From contig CASRZA010000001.1 in the NCBI GenBank assembly GCA_949439935.1, positions 1,391 through 65,390 on the forward strand: 64,000 bases of DNA. The letters are read 5' to 3'. This stretch comes from an uncultured Bacilli bacterium. Lineage in GTDB: Bacteria; Bacillota_I; Bacilli_A; RF39; UBA660. Below are positions 3,746 to 30,584 of this stretch, one piece after another (positions within the stretch are counted from its first letter, which is position 1; each line of letters begins with the position of its first letter). The notes beneath the pieces were generated by a model. The model had not been told where the DNA came from, did no database searches, and saw only the letters and a list, made by a program, of their open reading frames with translations. The position numbers were made by a program, and so were the translations under genes.

Positions 3746-6700
3746 AGAACAAACTGAAGCGATCGAAAAATCTGGTTCAAACATAATCGTAAGTGCAGGC
3801 GCTGGTTCTGGAAAGACAGCAGTTCTATCAGAAAGAGTGATCTTCAAACTTAACTCTGGTATTCACGTCGACGAACTCTTAATTCTGACCTTCACGCGCG
3901 CTGCCGCAGAAGAGATGAAAGATAGAATTAGAAAAAAAATTAAAAAAGATTCAAACTTAAAAGGTGAGTTAGACATTCTCGAATCTGCTTACATAACAAC
4001 TTTCGATTCCTTCGCCCTGTCAGTCGTAAAAAAATATCACTACTTATTGAACATACCGAAGTCTATCGAAATAACGGACGATTCGATCGTTAAATTAGAG
4101 AAGAAAAAAATTATGGATAGAGTCTTCGACTCTTCTTATGAAGAACCAAAAGAAAGTTTCTCTAACTTAATAAAAAGATTTTCTTTAAAAAACGATACTA
4201 TGTTAAAAAACTCTCTTCTCGTTTTAGCAGAAAAAGTGGAGGGGTTTACTGATAAAGATGAGTACTTGAGATTTTTAAAACAAGAGTTCTTTGGCGATGA
4301 AAACTTAGATGCAATCGTAAATTCTTTTTTGACGTATGTCGATGAACTCAAAAAAAACTTATCTCTAGAATTAGAAAAGACATATTTGTATTTTGATGAA
4401 ACTTTTAATTCTAAATTAGATGAAGCCTTATTACCCATCATAAATTCAAAAAATCTAGATGAACTGATCGCGAGAAAAGACGTAAAATTTCCGAGGGTCC
4501 CAAATGGTACAGACGACGAGGCAAAAAAAGTAAAAGAAGACTTAAAAAAAGCCTTAGAAGATTTATTAGCTGTAACAATCTATGGTAACGAAGAAAAAAT
4601 TAAAACCGACATATTGTCAACTAAATCTACGACACTTTCCATCGTCGAACTACTTGAACGATTTTATGCGGAATTAAAATCATTCAAAGAAAAAAATGGC
4701 ATCTATACGTTCGGAGACGTTGCAAATCTTGCCATAAAGATATTAAGAGATCAGGAAGATGCTAGACTAGAACTTAAGAACAAATTTAAAGAAATAATGA
4801 TCGACGAATATCAGGATACGAATGACATTCAAGAAACGTTCATAGGACTTATTGCTAACAACAACGTCTACATGGTAGGAGATATCAAGCAATCGATTTA
4901 CCGCTTTAGAGGATCCAACCCTAGCATTTTCAAAACAAAATACGACGACTATTCAAAAAACTTAAACGGTTACAAGATAGACCTCATCAAAAATTTCCGT
5001 TCTCGCGAAGAAGTACTGGACAATATAAATCGTATTTTTGATCTTTTAATGGATGACAATTTAGGCGGGGCTGCTTATACTGTATCTCACGAGATGGTTT
5101 ATGGTAACACTTCCTACGATACTAAAAAGATGTCGTCATATGATTATAACTTTGAAGTTCTAGAGTATGCAGATGCCAAAGAGACTGAGTTCACAAATAT
5201 AGAAGCGGAAATCTTTACGATTGGAAATGACATAAAGAAAAAGATAGATTCGCGTTTTCAAGTCTTCGACAAAGATACGAACGAACTGAGACCATTCAAA
5301 TATAGCGATGCAGTAATAATCCTAGATAGGAGTCGCTACTTTGACGATTTCAAAAGAATTTTTGAGTACTTGAGTATCCCGCTTACGATTTTAAAAGATG
5401 AAAACCTAAGCTCAAGCATAGACATTTTACTCTTAAAAAATATCATAGATCTTATAATACGAATTCAAAAAAAAGATTTCAAAGTAGATTTTAAATACGA
5501 TCTTTTGAGCATCGGTCGAAGTTTTCTTTATGAGTATACAGATGAATATCTTTTCACATTGATAACAGAAAACACTTTTCAAGAAAGCACATTGTACCAA
5601 GATTTCCAAAAACTAGATGACTATAATTCGATGACTATTCGCGAATTTCTCATTAAAATTTTAGATACCACTAAATACTTTGATAAGATTTCTCTAGTCG
5701 GTGATTACGAAAATCGATATGTACGAATCTCTAAAATCGTCGACATGGCGTCTTCACTTGGCAGTATGGGCTACACTATCGAAGATTTCAAAGATTATCT
5801 CGACGAGATCGATAAAGAAAACTTAGAAATAAAATACACTTCTGCTTCGACGGACTCTGACAGTGTAAAAATTCTAACTATCCATAAATCGAAGGGTCTC
5901 GAATATCCAGTTTGTTACTTTGCCGACTTGGTTCATGACTTTAACACGAAAGAGCTTAAAGAGAAATTCATATGTGATTCTAAATTCGGACTCATAACGC
6001 CTGTCGAAACTGAAGAGGAAGGAGACTCAGACTCCATAGTAAAACTTCTCTACAAAAGAGCATTTTTGAAAGAAGAAATAAGTGAAAAAATAAGACTTTT
6101 CTACGTGGCACTTACCCGTGCGAGAGAAAAGTTCATTATCGTCTTGCCGAACAAAGATACTGTCAAATTAGAAAAGAACGAAGTTGGCACCATAGAACTC
6201 ACGAGGAGACTTAAATTTAAAACTCTCGGCGATTTTATCTATGGAATAAAAGATTACCTTCCAACTTACTTCCACGAAGTCAACTTAAACGAGATCGGAC
6301 TTACAAAGGAGTACTTATATAACAAAGAATCTAAAACCAAAATAGATGTTTCTAAAATAGAAGATTTTACCGTTGAAGAGATCGATATTCCAGTCGAAAA
6401 TATCGAAGAACAAAGATTCTCAAAAAATCTTCCAGAACTCATCTCGAAAGAGGCAAATGACAACATGGAATATGGTACTAAAATACATGAAATTCTAGAA
6501 TATACAGATTTCAAAAACTTTGACTCGTCTGATATTGAAGATGAATTCGCAAGAAGTAAAGTGTCGAAATTCATTTCAAGCGAACTACTATCGAATGTAA
6601 AAGACGCCAAAATCTTTCATGAATACGAATTTATCTACACAAAGGGCGATATTGAATATCATGGCAGCATCGACCTTATGTTAGTGTATAAAGAACACAT

Positions 6701-6854
6701 AGACATCATCGACTATAAATTAAAAAATACGACCGATGAGCACTACTTAGATCAATTGAACGGATATAAAACCTACATCGAGACGATAACTAATAAGCCT
6801 GTTGATATCTATCTATATTCTATTCTTAATGAAAGTTTCACAAAATTAAATTGA
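3729..6854 (+). CDS. addA: ATP-dependent helicase/nuclease subunit A (AddA/RexA), UvrD-like
   Basis: Walker A GAGSGKT, motif II DEYQDT and UvrD-like helicase layout with a C-terminal nuclease region. AGGAGG RBS at 3714-3719, so the likely start is the ATG at 3729 rather than the GTG at 3720. Confidence 0.85.
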   Translation: MPSWTKEQTEAIEKSGSNIIVSAGAGSGKTAVLSERVIFKLNSGIHVDELLILTFTRAAAEEMKDRIRKKIKKDSNLKGELDILESAYITTFDSFALSVVKKYHYLLNIPKSIEITDDSIVKLEKKKIMDRVFDSSYEEPKESFSNLIKRFSLKNDTMLKNSLLVLAEKVEGFTDKDEYLRFLKQEFFGDENLDAIVNSFLTYVDELKKNLSLELEKTYLYFDETFNSKLDEALLPIINSKNLDELIARKDVKFPRVPNGTDDEAKKVKEDLKKALEDLLAVTIYGNEEKIKTDILSTKSTTLSIVELLERFYAELKSFKEKNGIYTFGDVANLAIKILRDQEDARLELKNKFKEIMIDEYQDTNDIQETFIGLIANNNVYMVGDIKQSIYRFRGSNPSIFKTKYDDYSKNLNGYKIDLIKNFRSREEVLDNINRIFDLLMDDNLGGAAYTVSHEMVYGNTSYDTKKMSSYDYNFEVLEYADAKETEFTNIEAEIFTIGNDIKKKIDSRFQVFDKDTNELRPFKYSDAVIILDRSRYFDDFKRIFEYLSIPLTILKDENLSSSIDILLLKNIIDLIIRIQKKDFKVDFKYDLLSIGRSFLYEYTDEYLFTLITENTFQESTLYQDFQKLDDYNSMTIREFLIKILDTTKYFDKISLVGDYENRYVRISKIVDMASSLGSMGYTIEDFKDYLDEIDKENLEIKYTSASTDSDSVKILTIHKSKGLEYPVCYFADLVHDFNTKELKEKFICDSKFGLITPVETEEEGDSDSIVKLLYKRAFLKEEISEKIRLFYVALTRAREKFIIVLPNKDTVKLEKNEVGTIELTRRLKFKTLGDFIYGIKDYLPTYFHEVNLNEIGLTKEYLYNKESKTKIDVSKIEDFTVEEIDIPVENIEEQRFSKNLPELISKEANDNMEYGTKIHEILEYTDFKNFDSSDIEDEFARSKVSKFISSELLSNVKDAKIFHEYEFIYTKGDIEYHGSIDLMLVYKEHIDIIDYKLKNTTDEHYLDQLNGYKTYIETITNKPVDIYLYSILNESFTKLN

Positions 6855-7442
6855 CAAGTGAAATCGAATGTCTTATGAAAGTCTAAAATCAAAGTGGTCA
6901 TTAGATTATTTTGATTGGACTGCTTACATAAGTACCAAAGCGAAGATGCCTACTTATCAACAGTACTCGCCTGTGAAAAAAGAAACGATATACACATATG
7001 TATGCGCCTTAAAGAAGCAAAGAAAACAATACTCGCAAAACTGGGCAAATTAAAAATAGTATCTGACGAAGACATATAACTAAGCCTATGATTGTATAAT
7101 ACTACGGTTAATAATCTAAAAAACTTAGGTTATACTATTAGAGAAATTGCTCAGTTGCTTTGTGACGATCAAGAAGGCATAGGCGAAAAAGGAAAAGGTG
7201 ATAGAATCGACAACACAAACCTCGTCGAATTTATAATAGATTATGGGCTGAATACTCATGGTGCTAGTAGACTGAAAAAAACTCCCATCGTTCTATTAAA
7301 AGAAATAAGAGACCGCATAAGAGATTATGCTTGCCTCGAAGAAGATATGATCGTTCAAATACAAGCCTGACTTGGGACAGCAAACCCTTCGTTTTAAACC
7401 AAATAAAGAAAACTAAATATATCGTATAATGATTTACTTGCA

Positions 7443-22186: not shown

Positions 22187-25100
22187 ACCTACAAGGATAG
22201 GATTATTAAACTTTTGGCTATATGATGACGAAGAATTTGATTTTGCAGATGGTAAACTTCTCTTGAGGGGAGAAAACGGTTCTGGAAAATCGGTCACGAT
22301 GCAATCATTTATCCCACTCATTTTAGATGGAAACAAATCTCCGAAGCGATTGGACCCTTTCGGTAGTACCGATAAACACATCGAAGCTTATTTACTTGGT
22401 GGCTACGACACAGAACAAAAAAACGAAGCGACGGGATACCTCTTTATGGAATTTTATGAAGAATCGACACTTAAATATATAACGATAGGTATGGGGCTTC
22501 ACGCACGAAAAGGTCGACCAGTCGATTTTTGGGGATTCGCTATCACGGATGGCAAACGAATAAACAGAGATTTCTTTCTTTACAAAAACCATGTGCAAAA
22601 AGTACCTTTAAGCAAAAACGAATTAAGAACAGCTTTAGGCCCTATGAATACACTTGTCGATACAACTAAAGAATATAAAAAAATGGTAAATAACATTCTA
22701 TTTGGATTTCAAAATCTCGAAGATTATGATGAATTCATAAATGTATTAATTCAACTACGTAGTCCTAAGCTTTCGAAAGATTATAAACCGACCGTGTTGA
22801 TGGACATTTTAAGTAAAGTATTACAACCTCTTACAGAAGATGATTTGCGGCCTCTTTCTGAAGCAGTGGAAGAGATGGATAACACCAAAGAAAAGATTGA
22901 GCAACTGAAAAAACACTTAAAGCAATTATCTTATCTCATGCAATCTTATAGAAACTATAATGAATCGATACTCTATAAAAAAGCGAGTAATTTTAAAGAG
23001 AGCAGAGTAGCAGAGGAAAAAGCAAAAGCTGAACTTGCTGAAATTGAAAACAAAATCGTCAATGCTGAAAAGAAAATTGTTGAACTCGACCAAAGTTTAA
23101 CGGAACTTGAAATCGAACTAGAAGCAGCCAAAAAGTCTCGTTCAGAAATTGATAGCAAAGATTTAGAAAGCAATATTCAAAAAGTAAAAGAGTTAGAAGA
23201 AGCCATTACCAAATTGAACGCAGAGCTTTCAGGCTATTCTGAAAGACAAGAAGCGCTGGAAAATAAAAGACTAGACGCGGAAAAGAAAAAAAAGCACTGC
23301 GAAGATGAGTTAGCATCTCTTGAAAGAAGAATTGCAAGAACTATTAATTCTATCGATGGATTATGCAGTGAAGTCATGTTTAATGACCCAGTTTTACTTT
23401 TAAAGGATTACCAAAAAGACAATAAAAATATAATTGATTTTGATTCCATATTACAAAGGACAAATGGTCATAACCAAAAGTTATACGAAGTGCTTTCAAA
23501 ATTAAAAGAAAAAACGATAAAAGAAATACACTTCGGTGAAATAGAAAGCGAACTGAACATTCTCAACAAAGAGCAGAGCGACCTAATTCACAAATTAGAG
23601 ATAGGACAAAGTTCTTTAGAAGAAATGCTTGCTACTATGCGCGATGAAATACTTTTTATAGAAAAATCTAATCAATTTGTTAAATTCGATGCAGACGATA
23701 AAAATCGTCTTCTAAAACCGACATACGATTTTTCAAAGAGCAATTATGATGAAGCAAAGACATTCTATCAAAATCTTGCCGATTCCTACTATAAAGAAGC
23801 GAACAAAGCATTTTATTTCATCGAGAATAAATTAAAAGCTACGAAAGAAAATCTTAGTACGCTACATTGTCAACTGGAAGAACTTAAAAATCAAAAAGAA
23901 GAAGAGATACCATTAGATATAGAGGAAGAAAGTACTTTTGCATTCTTAAAGAGCCAAAATGTCCCATTTATTCCATTCTATAAAGCAGTAGACTTCATCG
24001 AGAATCTTTCCGCAAAGACAAAAAATCATATTGAGGCGACAATGCTAAAAGCAGGACTTCTTAACGCACTTCTTATCGATACGAAGGACTTAGAGAAAGT
24101 CGTCAACCATAAAGGTGTTTTCTTGACACCGGGTCCAAAAAAAAGAAACAATCTAACGAAGTACTTTAGTTGTGCAAAAAATATAGATTTCGAAAGTAAA
24201 ATTGTCATCAACGTTTTGGAGTCTTTAAGTATTGATAGCGATGAACTCATTTCTTTCAGTGAAAATTCATTTAAAATAGAGACGATTCATGGGTACGGTG
24301 CGCAAAATGAAAATCAAAAATATATCGGTATTCTTGCCAGAATTGAAGCTCATCAAAAAACTATCGATGCAAAAATGTCTGCTATCAAGGAAGTGGAAGA
24401 GACAAAGGCACAATTAGAGAAAGCTTTAGAAGAAAAGGGACTGGAAGTTCAAACAATAGAACACGAAAAAACCTTGTACCCAAATGACACGAAAGTGGAA
24501 GAAATTATCATAGGAATAAACGAGTTAGAACTTCGGCTAGATATCAAAAAAAAAGAAATTCTACAAACGGAGGAAAAAGCAACTTCATTGAAAGACTCAT
24601 TGAATATATTGTATAAAGAAATAAACGAACACAAAGATACGATTGCTCTACCATTAACTGAAGAATCAATCAGTGATGCTTTAAGTTCGTTGACAATCTT
24701 GATAAATGAAATAAATGATTTAAAAAGTGATTACCAACAATTAATACAAAATCGAGAGAATCTTTCCTTAATAGACGAAAGAATAGAAGAAATCACTGCA
24801 TCGCTCGGCGAAATATACCTCAAAATAGAAGAAAATAAAAAAACAGCTCAAAAATACATGTCTACAAAAAACAATATTGAGGAAATCCTAAACTCAGAAG
24901 AAACTAAAAAATTGAGCGAATTGCTTAGAACACTGGACGAAAAAATCGATTCGATTCCTAAGAAACAAGGTAACCTTAGAGAAGAAAAAGGGACATTGGT
25001 TGCAGATTTGACAAACTACAAAAACGCTTTAGAAAATAATCGAATTAGCTATAATACAAAAAAAGACATGACAGAGATATATAGAAATATATTTATGAAT

Positions 25101-26231
25101 GAATATAATCTAAACTATGTCATGAAATGCGAAGGAAACGATACAGAATTAGCGAATAGGGTCTTCGACCAACTATCTGCCAAGAAAAATGCAGATGAAA
25201 AAACACTTTTCGAAAACTTTGTCGACAATTACAATAAATACAAAAATGAGTTAGCGGAATACAAACTGTCATATAAAACTCTCTTTGAGACGGTGGAAGA
25301 GGGGGAATTCAAGGCTGTTTATGAAACAGCTACGAGAAGAGACTATACTGTCATTTACCAAGGCCGCACAATGAACTTATTCGCTCTTGAGAATGAACTA
25401 AACGCCTCGATAATAGAAAATGAACAAATCATAAGTGACCAAGATAGAAATCTTTTCGAAGAAATACTTTTAAAAACGGTAGGTAACAAAATTCGGGAAC
25501 ACATCGATGATGCCAAAAAGTGGATTAAGACGATAAACCAAATTATGAGAAATATGCAAACATCAAGCGCGCTATCATTCCAATTAGAATGGCATCCTAA
25601 AGATAAAGACTCGATTGACGAAATAGACACCCGCGAATTGATAAGCTTATTCAACATAAATCCAGACATGATAAAACCGTCTGACAGTGACAAACTGATA
25701 AAACACTTCCGTTCTAAATTAAAAAGTAGGATTGAAGAGGAAACCCACGAGAGCTACGCTGATATTATTTTTGACATCCTCGATTATCGCAACTGGTTCC
25801 AATTCAAAATGTATTACACGAGAGCAGGCGAAAATAGACATGAACTCACAGACAAAGTTTTCTCTGTCTTCAGTGGTGGAGAAAAAGCAAAAACGATGTA
25901 TCTACCACTTTTCACCGCGGTCTGTGCTAAACTACAAAGTGCTCGAAAGAATGCACCTCATATAGTCGCTCTCGATGAAGCTTTTGCGGGTGTCGATGAT
26001 GCAAACATTCGAGAAATGTTTGGAATCATGGGTTCACTAAATCTCGATTATATTCTCACATCACAAGCACTATGGGGAGACTTTGATACGATTAAAGAAT
26101 TAGGAATATCGGAATTGTTAAGACCGAATAATTCTTCGGTTGTAGGAATAAGACGATATCATTGGAACGGATTTGTAAAAGAAGTAGTACAAAAAAGGAA
26201 AGTGGAAGATGAACCTATGGACATATTTTAA
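22176..26231 (+). CDS. jetC: SMC-like ABC ATPase with long coiled coil (JetC/MksB-like)
   Basis: N-terminal Walker A GENGSGKS, very long heptad-rich coiled-coil middle, C-terminal ABC signature SGGEK and Walker B HIVALDEAF. ~1350 aa, matching the SMC-like component of the conserved four-gene (TIGR02677-80 type) operon. Confidence 0.7.
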   Translation: MNYKPTRIGLLNFWLYDDEEFDFADGKLLLRGENGSGKSVTMQSFIPLILDGNKSPKRLDPFGSTDKHIEAYLLGGYDTEQKNEATGYLFMEFYEESTLKYITIGMGLHARKGRPVDFWGFAITDGKRINRDFFLYKNHVQKVPLSKNELRTALGPMNTLVDTTKEYKKMVNNILFGFQNLEDYDEFINVLIQLRSPKLSKDYKPTVLMDILSKVLQPLTEDDLRPLSEAVEEMDNTKEKIEQLKKHLKQLSYLMQSYRNYNESILYKKASNFKESRVAEEKAKAELAEIENKIVNAEKKIVELDQSLTELEIELEAAKKSRSEIDSKDLESNIQKVKELEEAITKLNAELSGYSERQEALENKRLDAEKKKKHCEDELASLERRIARTINSIDGLCSEVMFNDPVLLLKDYQKDNKNIIDFDSILQRTNGHNQKLYEVLSKLKEKTIKEIHFGEIESELNILNKEQSDLIHKLEIGQSSLEEMLATMRDEILFIEKSNQFVKFDADDKNRLLKPTYDFSKSNYDEAKTFYQNLADSYYKEANKAFYFIENKLKATKENLSTLHCQLEELKNQKEEEIPLDIEEESTFAFLKSQNVPFIPFYKAVDFIENLSAKTKNHIEATMLKAGLLNALLIDTKDLEKVVNHKGVFLTPGPKKRNNLTKYFSCAKNIDFESKIVINVLESLSIDSDELISFSENSFKIETIHGYGAQNENQKYIGILARIEAHQKTIDAKMSAIKEVEETKAQLEKALEEKGLEVQTIEHEKTLYPNDTKVEEIIIGINELELRLDIKKKEILQTEEKATSLKDSLNILYKEINEHKDTIALPLTEESISDALSSLTILINEINDLKSDYQQLIQNRENLSLIDERIEEITASLGEIYLKIEENKKTAQKYMSTKNNIEEILNSEETKKLSELLRTLDEKIDSIPKKQGNLREEKGTLVADLTNYKNALENNRISYNTKKDMTEIYRNIFMNEYNLNYVMKCEGNDTELANRVFDQLSAKKNADEKTLFENFVDNYNKYKNELAEYKLSYKTLFETVEEGEFKAVYETATRRDYTVIYQGRTMNLFALENELNASIIENEQIISDQDRNLFEEILLKTVGNKIREHIDDAKKWIKTINQIMRNMQTSSALSFQLEWHPKDKDSIDEIDTRELISLFNINPDMIKPSDSDKLIKHFRSKLKSRIEEETHESYADIIFDILDYRNWFQFKMYYTRAGENRHELTDKVFSVFSGGEKAKTMYLPLFTAVCAKLQSARKNAPHIVALDEAFAGVDDANIREMFGIMGSLNLDYILTSQALWGDFDTIKELGISELLRPNNSSVVGIRRYHWNGFVKEVVQKRKVEDEPMDIF

Positions 26232-27459
26232 AGAAAGAAGAGGTTTTGACAGGTTACTCATTGCTCTTAAGGAAAAATACATTTCTTTAGGACGATACAG
26301 TGGAACTGTCGCATTAGACAATTTGACCGAGCTGGAAGCAGAAGAACTGTCAAAATTTTTTGGACAGAAACTTTATCCAGGCGAATCCTTCAAAACCTCT
26401 TTTTCAAAAATAGAAAAAAAGCTAAAAAACACGATTTATGAAAATTTCTCCTGGGAGACAGTGTTTATCAACTACTTCGGAAAACAACCTATCCCAAAAG
26501 CTACCATCCGAAACCAAAAGAGAGAAACTGAGCAACAATTTTTCAGAAATATTGCAAATAATCTTTCACCAACATTAAGACAAGAATTTGGCAGAATCGT
26601 GCAAGAAAAGAGTTCGATACATTCTTTATTAGTGAAAAGGTATCGCAAGGAAAAGAACTTTGAGAAAGAACTGTCCAACTTATTAGAAATTATCGAAAAT
26701 TTGAAAGAACTCACACCAAGCACTCTTTCTTTGATTGCATCTCATACGGGAAATCCACACTTTTTGGATATGGGTACACAAAACAATAGTTTGTTCATAA
26801 AAATTTTGGCTCTGTATAAAGGACTAGAAGAACCATTGACAAATCAAGAAAAAATTGATTTCCTTTCTGAATTGGGAATTGCAGTGGATGATTTATCAAA
26901 CTATGCGATTACCTATATGCTCGACAGCAATACGACTTTTATTAAAAGCTTTAAAGAAGCAGAAGAACCATTAAACATTAACCTTCATAATATCGAAAAA
27001 ATAGATAACTTATTTACTAAAATTGGTCATGTGTTCCTCTTTGAAAATCCGTCTATTCTATCTAAATTGTCTTATTTAAATGTCCCTATTATTATCACTT
27101 CGGGTAATCCAAACTATGTAGTTTATAAGCTTTTAGACAAGCTTGTACAGAATAAGATTTGTATCCATTACAACGGTGATTTTGATCCAGAAGGTCTTAT
27201 AATTGCTAACAATCTTAAAAATCGATACCCTACTATGCAATTGTTTTGCTATGAGGGGCGAGATTTTTACAATACAATATCGGATAATATATTAAATGAG
27301 CCTCGCTTGAAAAAACTACGTCTTGTAGAATGTTCAGATTTGCAAAACATAAAAAGATTGCTCTTAAAAGAAAAACGATGTGGTTATCAAGAGAATAATT
27401 TAGAAAGAATAAAGGAGTATATCGAAAAAATAACAGTTAAGCAATCGGTAGAAGTCTAA
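26209..27459 (+). CDS. jetD: Toprim-domain protein (JetD/MksG-like)
   Basis: Fourth gene, overlapping the jetC stop. The C-terminal region has a Toprim-like layout: VPIIITSGNP, then CIHYNGDFDPEG (DxD). Confidence 0.6.
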   Translation: MNLWTYFKERRGFDRLLIALKEKYISLGRYSGTVALDNLTELEAEELSKFFGQKLYPGESFKTSFSKIEKKLKNTIYENFSWETVFINYFGKQPIPKATIRNQKRETEQQFFRNIANNLSPTLRQEFGRIVQEKSSIHSLLVKRYRKEKNFEKELSNLLEIIENLKELTPSTLSLIASHTGNPHFLDMGTQNNSLFIKILALYKGLEEPLTNQEKIDFLSELGIAVDDLSNYAITYMLDSNTTFIKSFKEAEEPLNINLHNIEKIDNLFTKIGHVFLFENPSILSKLSYLNVPIIITSGNPNYVVYKLLDKLVQNKICIHYNGDFDPEGLIIANNLKNRYPTMQLFCYEGRDFYNTISDNILNEPRLKKLRLVECSDLQNIKRLLLKEKRCGYQENNLERIKEYIEKITVKQSVEV

Positions 27460-27564
27460 TTATACTATTCACAACACTTCATATAAAGTGAAATGTTTCT
27501 GAGTTTTTGACTGCAATAGAATAAAGCACATCTAAATTCCTCGGTCATATATTATACCGAGGAT

Positions 27565-27869
27565 GTGTTTTATATGAAAAATACTTACGGTAACTTAGAC
27601 AGAGTTTTAACAGGCATTGTAATTGACCCTGGGCACGGAGGCGCGGATGGAGGGGCTTCTGGAAACGGAATTGTGGAAAAAAATATGACTTTGGATATAA
27701 GCAATTACATGTTTAACAGATTTAAAGAGTTGGGTGTTCCCGTAGCAATGACGCGAACTGGAGATGTAGAGTTGACTTCGTCGACAAGGCCTAGAAAGGT
27801 TCTAGATGCATTTGGAAGTGGAAAAGATGTGATTGTCTTATCTAATCACATAAATGCAGGAGGTGCGGA
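27565..27869 (+). pseudogene. N-acetylmuramoyl-L-alanine amidase (Amidase_3 + LysM), 5' segment
   Basis: IDPGHGGADGGA...LSNHINAGGAE, then the frame runs into inserted DNA (FSYHC*). Read across the junction, the frame continues exactly at 41320 (NAGGAEGAEVIY). Confidence 0.75.
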
Positions 27870-28226
27870 GTTCAGTTACCATTGTTAGATTAGTTGGGTA
27901 TAAGGACAAATAATTGAAATAAAATATATAAAAAGTAGAATTTTAGAAATTGTAATAACCCTAAAATTTAAATTTCGTTGAATCAATCTAAAGTGCACAA
28001 TTAAGTGCATTTTAATAAAAAAAACGAATTTCCAAAAGAAAGTGCACAATAATAAAGAAAAAAACATCTAATTTTTATGAAAAAATGATTGAATAATAAA
28101 CAAAAAGCGATAATTGTTTCACGACAAAAAGATTACAGTGAAATCAAATTATAAAAGTAAGCGCACAATAATTTAACTACTGTAAGTGAGATATATTATA
28201 CAAAAATAAAATAAATAGTCAATAAT

Positions 28227-28252
28227 GAATTTGACAGCATGAATCCAATGTT
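28227..28252. repeat. 26-bp direct repeat flanking the IS (GAATTTGACAGCATGAATCCAATGTT), copy 1
   Basis: Perfect 26/26 match to 29497-29522. Confidence 0.8.
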
Positions 28253-29496
28253 TGTTGAGTTACAATAGATGTGAGACCTGAGTATGTACAAAAAAAGATT
28301 TAAGTCGTAAAATATCGTTTAAGAAAAAACACGAAAGGACTTAAATCTATGAACAGTATAACACAAAAAGCAAATAATTCAAGATATTTACCACACGAGG
28401 TAGAAACACGTATATACGCAGTCAAATTATATAGAGGAGGTAATTCAGTTAAATATGTGTGTAGAAAATACCATATTTCTAAGGCTTCTCTTATGAGATG
28501 GAATAAAAAATATGATGGAACAAATGAATCTTTAATTGATAAATCTCATAGACCACTTACTCCTCATCCTAATGCTCATACTGATGAAGAACTAAAGTGG
28601 ATTTGGAATTATGTTAGAAGAACACCCAATATTACTCTAGGTGAATTATGGGTTAAACTTAAAAGTAATAAAGGTTACTCTAGACATCCCGGCAGCCTTT
28701 ATAGAGTTTTGAGAAGAAATGGATTTAAATATAAGATTAATATCAATCATACTTCTAAATATGTTCCTAAACCATATGATACTCCTAAGTCTTTAGGAGT
28801 AAAATGGCAGATTGATGTTAAATATGTTCCAAGAGAATGTCTAACTAATTCTATACCAAGTGATTTAAAGTTTTATCAATATACTTGCATTGATGAGGCA
28901 TCAAGAGAAAGATTTCTCTATTGGTATGACGAACAATCACCTGCCTCTACAGTAAATTTTATAAATAGATCTATCGAATACTTTGGATATAAACCTAAAA
29001 CTATTCAGACAGACAATGGACAGGAATTCACTTGGAATAGAGAAAAGATGAAAAAGATACATCCAGTCGATGAACTGTGCATTTCTCTTAATATAGAACA
29101 TTACAAAATTAAACCTAGAACGCCTAGACATAATGGCAAGGTAGAAAGAAGTCATCGAAGTGATAATGAGAGATTTTACAACAATCATTCTTTCTACTCT
29201 TTAGAAGACTTACAAAAACAAGGTGAGGTCTACCTCAAAAGATCTAATAATATCCCTATGCAAGTTTTAAAATATAAAACACCTTTAGAACAAAGAATGC
29301 TTTTATCTTTTGAAAGTTAATAATTATAATCCAAAATAAAAAGTTAGATCAAGGTAAGATAAACTTGGCTTCGCCAAACCTTGACTAACTTTCCATTTTG
29401 AATTCTCCTATGTCTAACTTCAAAAGAAAAAAAACGATATTTTGACCTACATCATTTTCTTGTAAAAGTTGGTCTCACATCATTTACATTTCTACA
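28253..29496 (+). mobile_element. insertion sequence (~1.24 kb), IS481/IS1202-like DDE (rve) transposase
   Basis: Imperfect terminal inverted repeats begin TGT and include GATGTGAGACC ... AAAATATCGTTT blocks at both ends. It holds a single transposase ORF and is flanked by perfect 26-bp direct repeats. Confidence 0.6.
28349..29320 (+). CDS. DDE (rve) transposase with N-terminal HTH
   Basis: HTH-like N-terminus. Integrase-core motifs WQIDVKYV, TDNGQEF and PRTPRHNGKVERSHR (D-D-E with the GK-ER signature). Confidence 0.7.
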   Translation: MNSITQKANNSRYLPHEVETRIYAVKLYRGGNSVKYVCRKYHISKASLMRWNKKYDGTNESLIDKSHRPLTPHPNAHTDEELKWIWNYVRRTPNITLGELWVKLKSNKGYSRHPGSLYRVLRRNGFKYKININHTSKYVPKPYDTPKSLGVKWQIDVKYVPRECLTNSIPSDLKFYQYTCIDEASRERFLYWYDEQSPASTVNFINRSIEYFGYKPKTIQTDNGQEFTWNREKMKKIHPVDELCISLNIEHYKIKPRTPRHNGKVERSHRSDNERFYNNHSFYSLEDLQKQGEVYLKRSNNIPMQVLKYKTPLEQRMLLSFES

Positions 29497-29522
29497 GAAT
29501 TTGACAGCATGAATCCAATGTT
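29497..29522. repeat. 26-bp direct repeat flanking the IS, copy 2
   Basis: Identical to 28227-28252. Confidence 0.8.
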
Positions 29523-29588
29523 GTGATGATAAAGGCTTGCCAACAGGCTAAAAAAAGCCTATTGGCAGTTAAGCCTATCACAACATTG
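29516..29588. repeat. long imperfect palindrome (~30-bp arms) overlapping the direct repeat
   Basis: CAATGTTGTGATGATAAAGGCTTGCCAACAGGC ... GCCTATTGGCAGTTAAGCCTATCACAACATTG. The arms are near reverse complements. Confidence 0.55.
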
Positions 29589-29756
29589 CCTCCGTAAAAT
29601 TCAAAATACAATTTATATAGTTTAGTGCACAACTTCTGTGCACTTCATTTTTTAAAATACAAAAATTTAAATTTTAAATATAAATAAATTGTAAATACTT
29701 AAAAATGTCGAAAAATATGTTATAATAATAGTTAAAAATAGCAGTATCTTTTTAAG

Positions 29757-30584
29757 ATGGATTCTGCTTATTTTTTGAAGTATGGAGTTGACAATATGAA
29801 GTACAAATTATTAGATCTAGAATTTGGGGTTGAAGCTTGTTTAGTATATATAGATGAATATACAGATGAACTGAAAAAATTAATTGATGATAATTTTTTA
29901 GAGATTATTAAAGGTAAAATGATAGCCGAAAGGACTTCTGATAATTGTGTAACTGATACTTTAAAAGATGCAGCAAAATATATTCTTAAGAAAAATAGAA
30001 CTTCATCTGCTAAGGTTGGAATTATTGGAGAATTTTTGTTTCACTGCTTTATGCGATTAAGTGAAATTTCTTCTAGATTTTTATCTTGTTGTCCAACAAT
30101 AGGTTATAGTGATACATATCAGGGATTTTTTAAAGGATTTGATGGTTGTTATTATTATCAAGATGAAATTTGGATAACTGAAATAAAATCAAAAGAAAGA
30201 AGTATAGATTTAGATAAAGATAATAAAGAAAAATTAACTTTCGCAGCAAATCAGATAGAACAGGAAGTTAACGATGAAGATATAAATAGATGGGAAAAAA
30301 CAAAAGGATATGTATTTAGTCAATTGACAAATGAAGAGGTGGATGAAAAAAATATATATAAGTTACTAACTAAAAATAGTAAGAATAATTATAATAAAAT
30401 TTTAGGTACAATGTTAATATACGATAGTAAAGAATTTGACGTTAATTATATAAAAGGGTATTTAGATAAATTGAAAGATAAAAATGTTGTTAATCAAAAG
30501 TTATTTATTATGTGTATAAGGAATTATGATTATGACACTTTATATAATTATATTTTAATGAAGTATGGTGATTCTTACGAATGA
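29757..30584 (+). CDS. HamA-like putative PD-(D/E)xK nuclease (Hachiman-like effector)
   Basis: 275-aa protein overlapping the start of the SF2 helicase gene. Candidate D...ExK motif (YYYQDEIWITEIKSK). Assignment is by architecture, not by an alignment I could run. Confidence 0.4.
   Translation: MDSAYFLKYGVDNMKYKLLDLEFGVEACLVYIDEYTDELKKLIDDNFLEIIKGKMIAERTSDNCVTDTLKDAAKYILKKNRTSSAKVGIIGEFLFHCFMRLSEISSRFLSCCPTIGYSDTYQGFFKGFDGCYYYQDEIWITEIKSKERSIDLDKDNKEKLTFAANQIEQEVNDEDINRWEKTKGYVFSQLTNEEVDEKNIYKLLTKNSKNNYNKILGTMLIYDSKEFDVNYIKGYLDKLKDKNVVNQKLFIMCIRNYDYDTLYNYILMKYGDSYE

Follow-up and report, generated by a model that had tools for sequence, protein, structure and literature searches.

Why is an insertion sequence (IS) in the genome of an uncultured Bacilli bacterium bordered by perfect direct repeats of 26 bp, and what directed it to the site that it occupies? 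The element lies at positions 28253–29496 (+ strand, 1,244 bp) of a stretch of 64,000 nucleotides (nt) of contig CASRZA010000001.1; the whole stretch is called the window below. Both parts of the question are best answered by one explanation, in which we have high confidence: the element is an ISSsu8-like IS of the IS481 type, which makes target-site duplications of 24–27 bp and homes to a fixed register upstream of sigma-A promoters.

The boundaries of the element were defined from its ends, its flanks, and its copies elsewhere. The tips read TGTTGAG…TTCTACA. The left terminal inverted repeat (IRL, 28253–28278, +) and the right one (IRR, 29471–29496, −) agree at 19 of 26 positions and have GATGTGAGACC in common (28268–28278 and 29471–29481). 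IRL contains TACAAT at positions 9–14 and GATGTGA at positions 16–22, and IRR contains an outward -35-like TTTACA 8 nt from its tip. Further inside, the 12-bp block AAAATATCGTTT at 28309–28320 has an inverted partner at 29432–29443 that is 100% complementary; this pair is a possible second transposase-binding site. The transposase gene (28349–29320, +) is a single open reading frame (ORF) of 323 aa without a frameshift, and the protein combines a helix-turn-helix (HTH) region (HTH_28/HTH_Tnp_1) with an RNase-H-like DDE core (rve and rve_3). The direct repeat, GAATTTGACAGCATGAATCCAATGTT, is perfect and is found at 28227–28252 and at 29497–29522. No further match was detected in the window even when three mismatches were allowed, and two matches were found in 0 of 100 shuffled sequences. 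Three loci from other samples (L069, L070, and L072) carry an identical IS and transposase, and they are homologous to the window precisely from 28253 to 29496 and divergent outside. Because the homology with identical copies stops at the IS tips, the 26-mer belongs to the flank and not to the IS. The first-pass annotation, made from the sequence alone, had described an IS of about 1.24 kb with TGT… termini, imperfect inverted repeats with common blocks, a transposase with HTH and rve DDE domains, and perfect 26-bp flanking repeats, and in all these points it was right.

Next, the length of the repeats was compared among relatives. Genome and metagenome scans yielded 142 related loci with protein identities of 37–93%, mostly from metagenome-assembled genomes (MAGs) labelled Bacilli, Erysipelotrichaceae, Clostridia, or Tenericutes. 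The IS tips were anchored on the conserved inverted repeat motif, GATGTGA at positions 16–22 of each end. In this way, 37 independent insertions with mutually unrelated flanking repeats were obtained, and the repeats had lengths of 24 bp (3 cases), 25 bp (22 cases), 26 bp (11 cases), and 27 bp (1 case). Unanchored exact matches ranged from 24 to 29 bp and included shared tip bases in some cases. Two close relatives of the window IS (L160 and L162), defined by transposases in the same 90%-identity cluster and by the same end sequences, have duplications of 25–26 bp at two further sites. For the relatives with 37–55% identity at L047–L062, the attempt to define ends and duplications had no usable outcome. 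The 26-bp repeats are true target-site duplications of unusual length, and a length of 24–27 bp is a property of the clade. The initial impression that the repeats are far longer than usual duplications was thus extended to 37 sites in relatives, and the other copies and relatives carry 24–27 bp instead of short duplications.

The alignment of the 37 targets on the duplication boundaries also revealed a motif outside of the duplication. T(A/C)TTGAC starts at position +5 and reads away from the duplication. An exact TTGAC was present at +5 in 15 of the 74 half-sites, while all other offsets together contained only two exact matches. The motif was never found on both sides of one duplication. 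Because it occurs on one side only at each site, the target is asymmetric and contains one promoter. A palindromic, two-sided target consensus (GTCAAT in the left and ATTGAC in the right flanks) was considered and rejected, as the motif of the individual sites is one-sided only. At the window IS, the landmark is the -35 hexamer TTGACT on the minus strand (28222–28217), 4 nt outside the left duplication, which is followed after 16 nt by the -10 hexamer TATAAT (28200–28195). This promoter reads leftwards, away from the IS, has 11 of 12 consensus matches, and is the best promoter-like site within 27800–29800.

The analysis was then extended to 192 distinct IS ends, irrespective of whether repeats could be detected. 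An exact TTGAC starts 29–32 nt from the tip in 33 of them, compared to 15 cases in the other 91 offsets combined. Offset 30 alone accounts for 18 exact matches, with about 0.16 expected per offset (Poisson p ~1e-30), and the opposite motif orientation gave no peak among the IS ends. When whole promoters were scored (TTGACA, 16–18 nt, TATAAT; threshold ≥ 9.5), 39 ends were positive at offset 30 and 18 at offset 31, compared to about one per offset elsewhere between 1 and 65. In total, 66 of the 192 ends were promoter-positive, corresponding to about two thirds of the insertions. The same register was observed in dozens of unrelated loci and species. The gap between the proximal joint and the -35 hexamer is constant at 4 nt, the variation in length is confined to the distal joint, and no sequence signal was found at the distal joint. 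These results show that integration is non-random. The landmark is a sigma-A promoter close to the consensus TTGACA-17-TATAAT, and the promoter-proximal joint lies 4 bp upstream of its -35 hexamer. The other joint lies about 25 bp further upstream, and the duplicated segment therefore comprises roughly -40 to -65, which corresponds to the UP-element zone. Insertion leaves the promoter intact together with the 29–30 bp that precede it.

The promoters can face either end of the element. Clade-wide, a promoter was found at 32 of 92 IRL ends and at 34 of 100 IRR ends; among the close relatives of the window IS, all six recognisable promoters were on the IRL side. A tRNA gene on the same strand follows 9–53 nt after the promoter at 10 of the 66 promoter-positive ends (15%), but at only 1 of 126 control ends, and a ribosome binding site (RBS) with an ORF within 150 nt was present at 35 of the 66.

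A similar pattern emerged when published data for the IS1202 family were re-read (Siguier et al., bioRxiv 10.1101/2022.12.17.520857, Supplementary Table 1, sheets 'IS1202 group' and 'ISTde1 group'). Among 37 entries of the IS1202 subgroup with repeats, the left (IRL-side) flank ends with GTCAA in 16. A promoter with at least 9 of 12 matches and with its -35 hexamer at +1 from the repeat was found on the IRL side in 26 of the 37, whereas the right flank had only three, and one insertion fronts a tRNA gene. In a sample of 15 entries of the ISTde1 subgroup with 15–18-bp repeats, eight have TTG in the IRL-side flank at +1 to +3, and seven have a promoter with a 17-bp spacer there. One insertion of ISLaac1 with a 17-bp repeat adjoins GTCAA, and another copy has a 28-bp repeat. 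In the text of the preprint, the only targeting discussed is that of Xer sites by the ISAba32 subgroup, and promoters are not mentioned as targets. The promoter-adjacent habit is common to the long-duplication subgroups of the IS1202 family, which have an unrelated transposase lineage. In the literature, which was covered in part, no report was found of promoter targeting or homing by bacterial insertion sequences such as these.

Information on the transposition route came from four junctions in which IRR and IRL are separated by 24 or 25 bp (L017:1725–1749, L035:2872–2895, L093:1104–1128, and L126:2201–2225). The duplication of the element itself forms the spacer in L126. In L093, a 1,156-bp insert between sequencing adapters contains the IS plus 25 bp in complete circular permutation. 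In copy-out-paste-in transposition, the spacer of the junction equals the duplication in length, as for example the 5 bp of ISKpn21. The junctions support a head-to-tail intermediate and would be consistent with copy-out-paste-in. At two further loci (L130:1965–1990 and L131:1872–1897), a degenerate IRL-like sequence, TACATTTTTTACTTTGATGTGAAAT, stands 1 nt beyond the IRR tip; it may be a solo end or a remnant that adjoins a full copy.

The results show that the transpososome joins the two IS ends to target phosphates that are 25–26 bp apart, and repair leaves a duplication of 24–27 bp because of this distance. Beyond this, the following mechanism can be proposed. Transposition would be of the copy-out-paste-in type and would proceed through a circular or tandem intermediate, in which the abutted ends have the same 25 bp between them. 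The landmark would most likely be the promoter as it is seen by the RNA polymerase (RNAP) holoenzyme, and the transposase might either contact the bound sigma-A/RNAP or respond to the DNA path that RNAP imposes. The long duplication would then reflect the geometry of the target complex, with lengths of 5 + 10n bp and, in the present case, about 2.5 helical turns: one active site would be fixed at the landmark, while the other would reach the helix at a distance of 0.5, 1.5, or 2.5 turns. Duplication classes of 5–6, 15–17, and 25–28 bp, about one helical turn apart, have been noted previously for IS481, IS481EU, and IS1202. Such targeting might offer a safe haven that spares genes.

Two modes of promoter recognition compete, namely guidance by RNAP and a direct read-out of the DNA. 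According to the second possibility, which is a serious competitor and to which we assign a considerable, though minor, probability, the transposase itself would read a -35-like TTGAC together with an AT-rich, bendable upstream tract, without RNAP, perhaps because of a resemblance to the ATTGAC in its own IRR. Most IRRs of the clade carry CATCATTGAC, and the target motif is T(A/C)TTGAC. Likewise, the tip of the IRR in the IS1202 subgroup, TGTCAA, is the reverse complement of TTGACA. Some IS families, such as IS30 and IS911, target sequences that are similar to their own ends. In addition, it is the spacing to the -35 hexamer that is exact, and the -10 hexamer is about 50 bp away from the nearest joint. 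However, the window IS has TTTAC instead of TTGAC in its IRR and yet adjoins a TTGACT promoter. Moreover, a -10 hexamer with at least 5 of 6 matches and a 16–18-bp spacer accompanies 29 of the 33 exact-TTGAC sites (88%; perfect in 22), compared to 32% of the intergenic TTGAC sequences at the same loci. When sites were chosen on the -10 hexamer alone, the -35 frequencies were T 91%, T 86%, G 60%, A 57%, C 51%, and A 51%, which resembles ordinary promoters and not a stricter read-out by a protein. Recognition of the promoter in the way the RNAP holoenzyme sees it is favoured, because the -10 hexamer is conserved to the same degree as the -35 hexamer, the statistics of the -35 hexamer are ordinary, and strong promoters, namely those of tRNA genes, are enriched.

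RNAP guidance may also be formulated more generally, so that long-duplication bacterial IS as a whole would be promoter-homing elements guided by the RNAP holoenzyme. This wider proposal is tentative, and we regard it as somewhat more doubtful than probable. The transposase would dock on or beside sigma-A/RNAP at a strong promoter, one strand transfer would occur at the upstream edge of the -35 hexamer, a second one 1.5 or 2.5 helical turns further upstream, and the duplications of 16–17 bp and of 25–28 bp would represent the docking footprint. The habit would have arisen convergently in the ISSsu8-like IS481 clade and in the ISTde1 and IS1202 subgroups, and it would be a prokaryotic counterpart of the homing of Ty3 and TRE5-A to RNA polymerase III genes.

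Could the association with promoters have been left by selection after random insertion into AT-rich intergenic DNA? Insertions inside genes or promoters would be purged, and the data consist entirely of standing genomic copies and contain no de novo events. Nevertheless, selection could not produce a peak with a sharpness of 1–2 bp, with 39 ends at offset 30, 18 at offset 31, and about one per offset elsewhere, and the absence of a peak for the opposite motif orientation and the recurrence of the register in unrelated loci and species also speak against it. We regard this explanation as very unlikely.

An affiliation with the IS1202 subgroup of the IS1202 family (IS1202, ISSeq2, and others) would at first sight explain the length of the repeats, and the first-pass annotation had suggested kinship with the IS1202 group (ISNCY, IS481-related), with duplications of about 24–29 bp. 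This length was correct: ISfinder lists 24–29 bp (PMC10045372), and 27–28 bp and hosts among Firmicutes and Tenericutes are given for the IS1202 subgroup by Siguier et al. The 26 bp of the window IS fall within the ISfinder range, the hosts agree, and insertion just upstream of an outward TTGACA-17-TATAAT promoter is common to both. The kinship itself was contradicted by the transposase. Its best NCBIfam model is IS481 (NF033577) with 191.4 bits over residues 21–314, which is below the curated cut-off of 224, while NF033594 (ISNCY_2) scores it at only 23.4 bits, with a cut-off of 250. The meaning of the latter model was checked with the 120-aa catalytic cores of IS1202, ISAba32, and ISTde1 (Data S3, PMC10045372), which reached 187, 215, and 145 bits, respectively, on NF033594 and 39–50 bits on the IS481 model. 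In BLASTP searches against ISfinder cores, IS481 members were at the top, and five cores of the IS1202 group reached only E = 0.01–1, compared to 4e-76 for ISSsu8.

ISSsu8 of Streptococcus suis, assigned to IS481 in ISfinder and located by a motif search in the alignments of PMC10045372, is the nearest ISfinder relative found; its core is 62% identical to residues 143–314 of the transposase, whereas the identity to ISAisp3 and ISMtsp15 is 33–39%. The catalytic residues are D156, D222, and E266, and the motifs are TDNGQEF with HNGKVERSHRSDNERF / NGKVERSHRSDN and NGKVE266RSHRSDN, so that N occupies position E+7. The definition of the IS1202 family (Siguier et al.) includes 400–500 aa, 1,320–1,990 bp, (S/T)DK, AKGRVER…TLQ(D/S)RL, and Q at E+7. 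The IS1202 subgroup is further characterized by an additional stretch of about 30 aa (TKKR…) immediately ahead of the catalytic domain. With 323 aa and 1,244 bp, the window IS is too short for the extra segments of that family, its motifs (TDNGxEF and NGKVER) differ, and the sequences of the inverted repeats are unrelated. In addition, a gap of 4 nt precedes the -35 hexamer in the clade and the promoter can lie at either end, in contrast to 0 nt and almost always IRL in the IS1202 subgroup. The resemblance in duplication length, 26 bp for the window IS and 24–27 bp for its clade, is behavioural only, and membership in the IS1202 family has hardly any probability. The comparisons of the protein sequences instead identify the element as an intact ISSsu8-like IS of the IS481 type. 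An AlphaFold model (pLDDT 80) contains two N-terminal helical bundles and an RNase-H-like core, and the closest structures in a fold search, IS21 IstA, TnsB, and retroviral integrases, represent generic DDE transposase/integrase folds only. A sequence search of the PDB revealed no relative at E ≤ 0.01.

The occurrence of the clade was also analyzed. A megablast search with the IS against plasmids and phages gave no match, and tblastn relatives had less than 34% identity in plasmids and 39–42% in phages; as the former search was empty and the latter relatives are distant, copies in finished sequences are lacking. All plasmid-borne relatives carry the annotation IS481 family transposase. At least 7,730 protein clusters (90% identity) are related at E ≤ 1e-20, and the ISSsu8-like clade is abundant in AT-rich gut Firmicutes and Mollicutes-like bacteria. 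Its members have a length of 1,120–1,264 bp. Two length classes of about 1,130 and 1,250 bp were apparent, and the difference appears to reside mainly in the 3′ region of the IS.

Another explanation invokes DNA structure at the target. An imperfect palindrome of 73 bp at 29516–29588, with perfect outer arms of 12 bp, shares its first 7 bp with the end of the right repeat and is predicted to fold with -37.2 kcal/mol (+ strand) and -44.9 kcal/mol (− strand; z = -6.5 and -8.6, respectively). It had been noticed already in the first-pass annotation, which took it as a hint that the IS targets a structured repeat. IS1630 of the IS30 family, which gives 16–26-bp duplications and reportedly duplicates inverted repeats (PMC3317919), would be a precedent for an IS that targets and duplicates hairpin-forming DNA such as terminators, and short hairpins are present at or near the duplication in a few other sites (L001, L015, and L023). 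The existence of the palindrome was confirmed, but its role as a target was not: it is unique, and the 37 reconstructed targets fold like control windows (-0.112 versus -0.108 kcal/mol per nt, p = 0.78). Furthermore, the duplication length is nearly constant and is not set by the size of a repeat. Hairpin targeting is thus highly improbable, and the palindrome is a real hairpin that is an incidental neighbour of the insertion. That the 26-bp repeats arose by recombination, or were present as a tandem or dispersed repeat before the IS inserted, to which the lack of a recovered empty site might point, has practically no probability, as the 26-mer occurs in the window only at the two junctions, abuts independently confirmed IS tips exactly, and has counterparts of the same length but unrelated sequence at 37 other insertions.

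Several observations weigh against the explanation of the locus given at the outset or limit it. About 46 elements have no flanking repeat. For several of these, the left flank of one contig recurs as the right flank of another; such copies are assembly chimeras or inter-copy recombinants, as was likewise argued for IS1202 elements by Siguier et al., and they explain only some of the repeat-less elements. Most of the related loci are from short-read metagenome assemblies. No IS-free allele of the window copy was recovered, so that the sequence before insertion was reconstructed and not observed. L065 and L066 have an identical downstream gene, but to the left of 29657 they no longer match the window. 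L155 has identical upstream genes, differs from the window between 28047 and 29622, and contains an IS30-like gene in this interval; an empty site was not recovered because the neighbouring alleles differ in exactly this intergenic stretch. ISSsu8 is listed with a duplication of 3 bp (ISSsu8_3bp, PMC10045372 Data S2), in conflict with a rule for the whole clade, but this entry may be an annotation from a copy without true repeats. About one third of the insertions have no recognisable promoter at the expected offset, and the promoter at the window IS is an orphan without an obvious gene downstream. The enrichment of -10 hexamers could in part arise from the fact that an intergenic TTGACA in an AT-rich context is usually a promoter. 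The junctions are ambiguous and could represent circles or tandem dimers. In addition, the usual junction promoter was ruled out: the two hexamers in the ends, in IRR the TTGACT or TTTACA at 8 nt from the tip and in IRL the TACAAT at positions 9–14, are placed 41 bp apart by the 25-bp spacer, and they would fit only a spacer of 1–2 bp, which was not seen for true ends.

The element was also compared with named systems. It shares with the IS481 family, including ISSsu8, the single ORF with HTH and DDE domains, the TGT…ACA termini, and a length of about 1.1–1.25 kb. IS481 itself prefers NCTAGN targets, and promoter homing has not been described for IS481 elements. The duplications of the window IS clade differ from those of the IS481 family, which are 2–15 bp and mostly 6 bp in ISfinder, and no prokaryotic IS481 entry with 24–29 bp is found among the listed ISfinder members (PMC10045372). 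In addition, N replaces the usual K/R at E+7, as is also the case in ISSsu8 (ERSHRNDN). The parabasalid IS481-like transposons, IS481EU, have duplication classes of about 4, 15, and 25 bp (PMC10045372). The window IS is similar to them in having an IS481-related transposase, although the similarity is weak (E = 3e-4), and in the class of about 25 bp, but it has a bacterial host and its clade has a fixed length of 24–27 bp, whereas IS481EU are eukaryotic, have several classes, and promoter targeting is unreported for them.

Other systems are similar in behaviour only. The ISTde1 subgroup, represented by a small sample, also has a long duplication, which at 15–18 bp is one helical turn below 25–28 bp, and its transposase belongs to another family. 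The ISAba32 subgroup likewise inserts at a fixed short distance (5 bp) from a protein-bound chromosomal landmark, but this landmark is the XerCD/dif site, the duplications are 5–6 bp, and the transposase family is different. IS1630 of Mycoplasma fermentans has long duplications (16–26 bp) in an AT-rich, wall-less host (PMC3317919); in contrast to the window IS, their length is variable and reportedly matches inverted repeats in the target, and the transposase family differs. The integrases of the retrotransposons Ty3, Ty1, and TRE5-A home to a narrow zone upstream of strongly transcribed genes, including tRNA genes, via the transcription machinery. With tRNA promoters as 15% of the recognised targets, the present clade would be a functional analogue, but the former elements are eukaryotic retroelements, use RNA polymerase III complexes, and make short duplications, and only the DDE fold is common.

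Some further features were observed within and directly beside the IS. The duplication itself contains a rightward TTGACA (28231–28236 and 29501–29506, +), which is back-to-back with the leftward TTGACT; 18 nt further on, it is followed by TG-n-GATGAT, and this may be a weak divergent promoter toward the palindrome. Inside the IS, 3′ of the transposase stop codon, an imperfect palindrome was seen by eye at 29335–29397, with a spurious Rfam miRNA match. A hairpin sequestering the RBS was predicted at the left end of the IS, without statistical support (z = -0.88). A scan of 27400–29800 with Rfam yielded nothing at the gathering score and only weak ARRPOF-like and spurious miRNA matches. The match to ARRPOF RNA (RF02933) at 29535–29694 (−), which overlaps the 73-bp palindrome and a GTGCAC hairpin, has 23.5 bits (E = 0.0055; gathering score 127) and is probably due to chance.

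In the genomic neighbourhood of the IS, the GC content falls to about 25–26% across 28–44 kb. On the upstream side, the segment at about 22700–27888 contains a Wadjet-like, JetC/JetD-like pair, which consists of a 1,351-aa SbcC_Walker_B protein and a 416-aa protein with DUF3323 and DUF2399, and after it a truncated gene fragment for an N-acetylmuramoyl-L-alanine amidase (27565–27888). On the downstream side, a low-GC block contains genes for an unknown protein of 275 aa, an 816-aa DEAD-box helicase, a Fic protein, and a DNA methylase. In other samples (L065:408 and L066:690), this block is preceded by wholly different upstream sequence, with a common left boundary at window position 29657, which suggests that it is a mobile or hyper-variable defence cassette. 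Boxes of the form (A)AAGTGCACAA(T) occur around the insertion region (27990–28001, 28039–28050, 28160–28172, and 29624–29644), and the last one forms the GTGCAC hairpin, which precedes a T-run. L155 diverges from the window right at such boxes (28047 and 29622), and they could represent an operator, a recombination site, or cassette boundaries. The intergenic spot looks like a recurrent landing or exchange site, because L155 carries a different transposase gene (5689–6894; 401 aa, HTH_38, IS30-like) at the equivalent position.

The results have consequences for annotation as well as for transposition biology. Duplications of 2–15 bp have been assumed for the IS481 type, but a large and very abundant gut clade makes 24–27 bp, and programs for IS boundaries and duplications in which the duplication length has an upper limit will delimit these elements wrongly. 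For technology, a compact system that needs only one protein and places DNA at a predictable base in front of promoters could also be useful. A sharp, fixed register upstream of consensus promoters is found in two unrelated transposase lineages, with length steps of one helical turn, and two unexplained features, the very long duplications and the choice of the target, are joined in one testable hypothesis. This points to a safe-haven strategy guided by the host machinery, of which no description for bacterial IS was found in the part of the literature that was covered. The elements accumulate before tRNA genes and other strong promoters without destroying them, and this is of relevance for the interpretation of promoter-proximal polymorphism, inter-copy rearrangements, and assembly breaks in gut MAGs.

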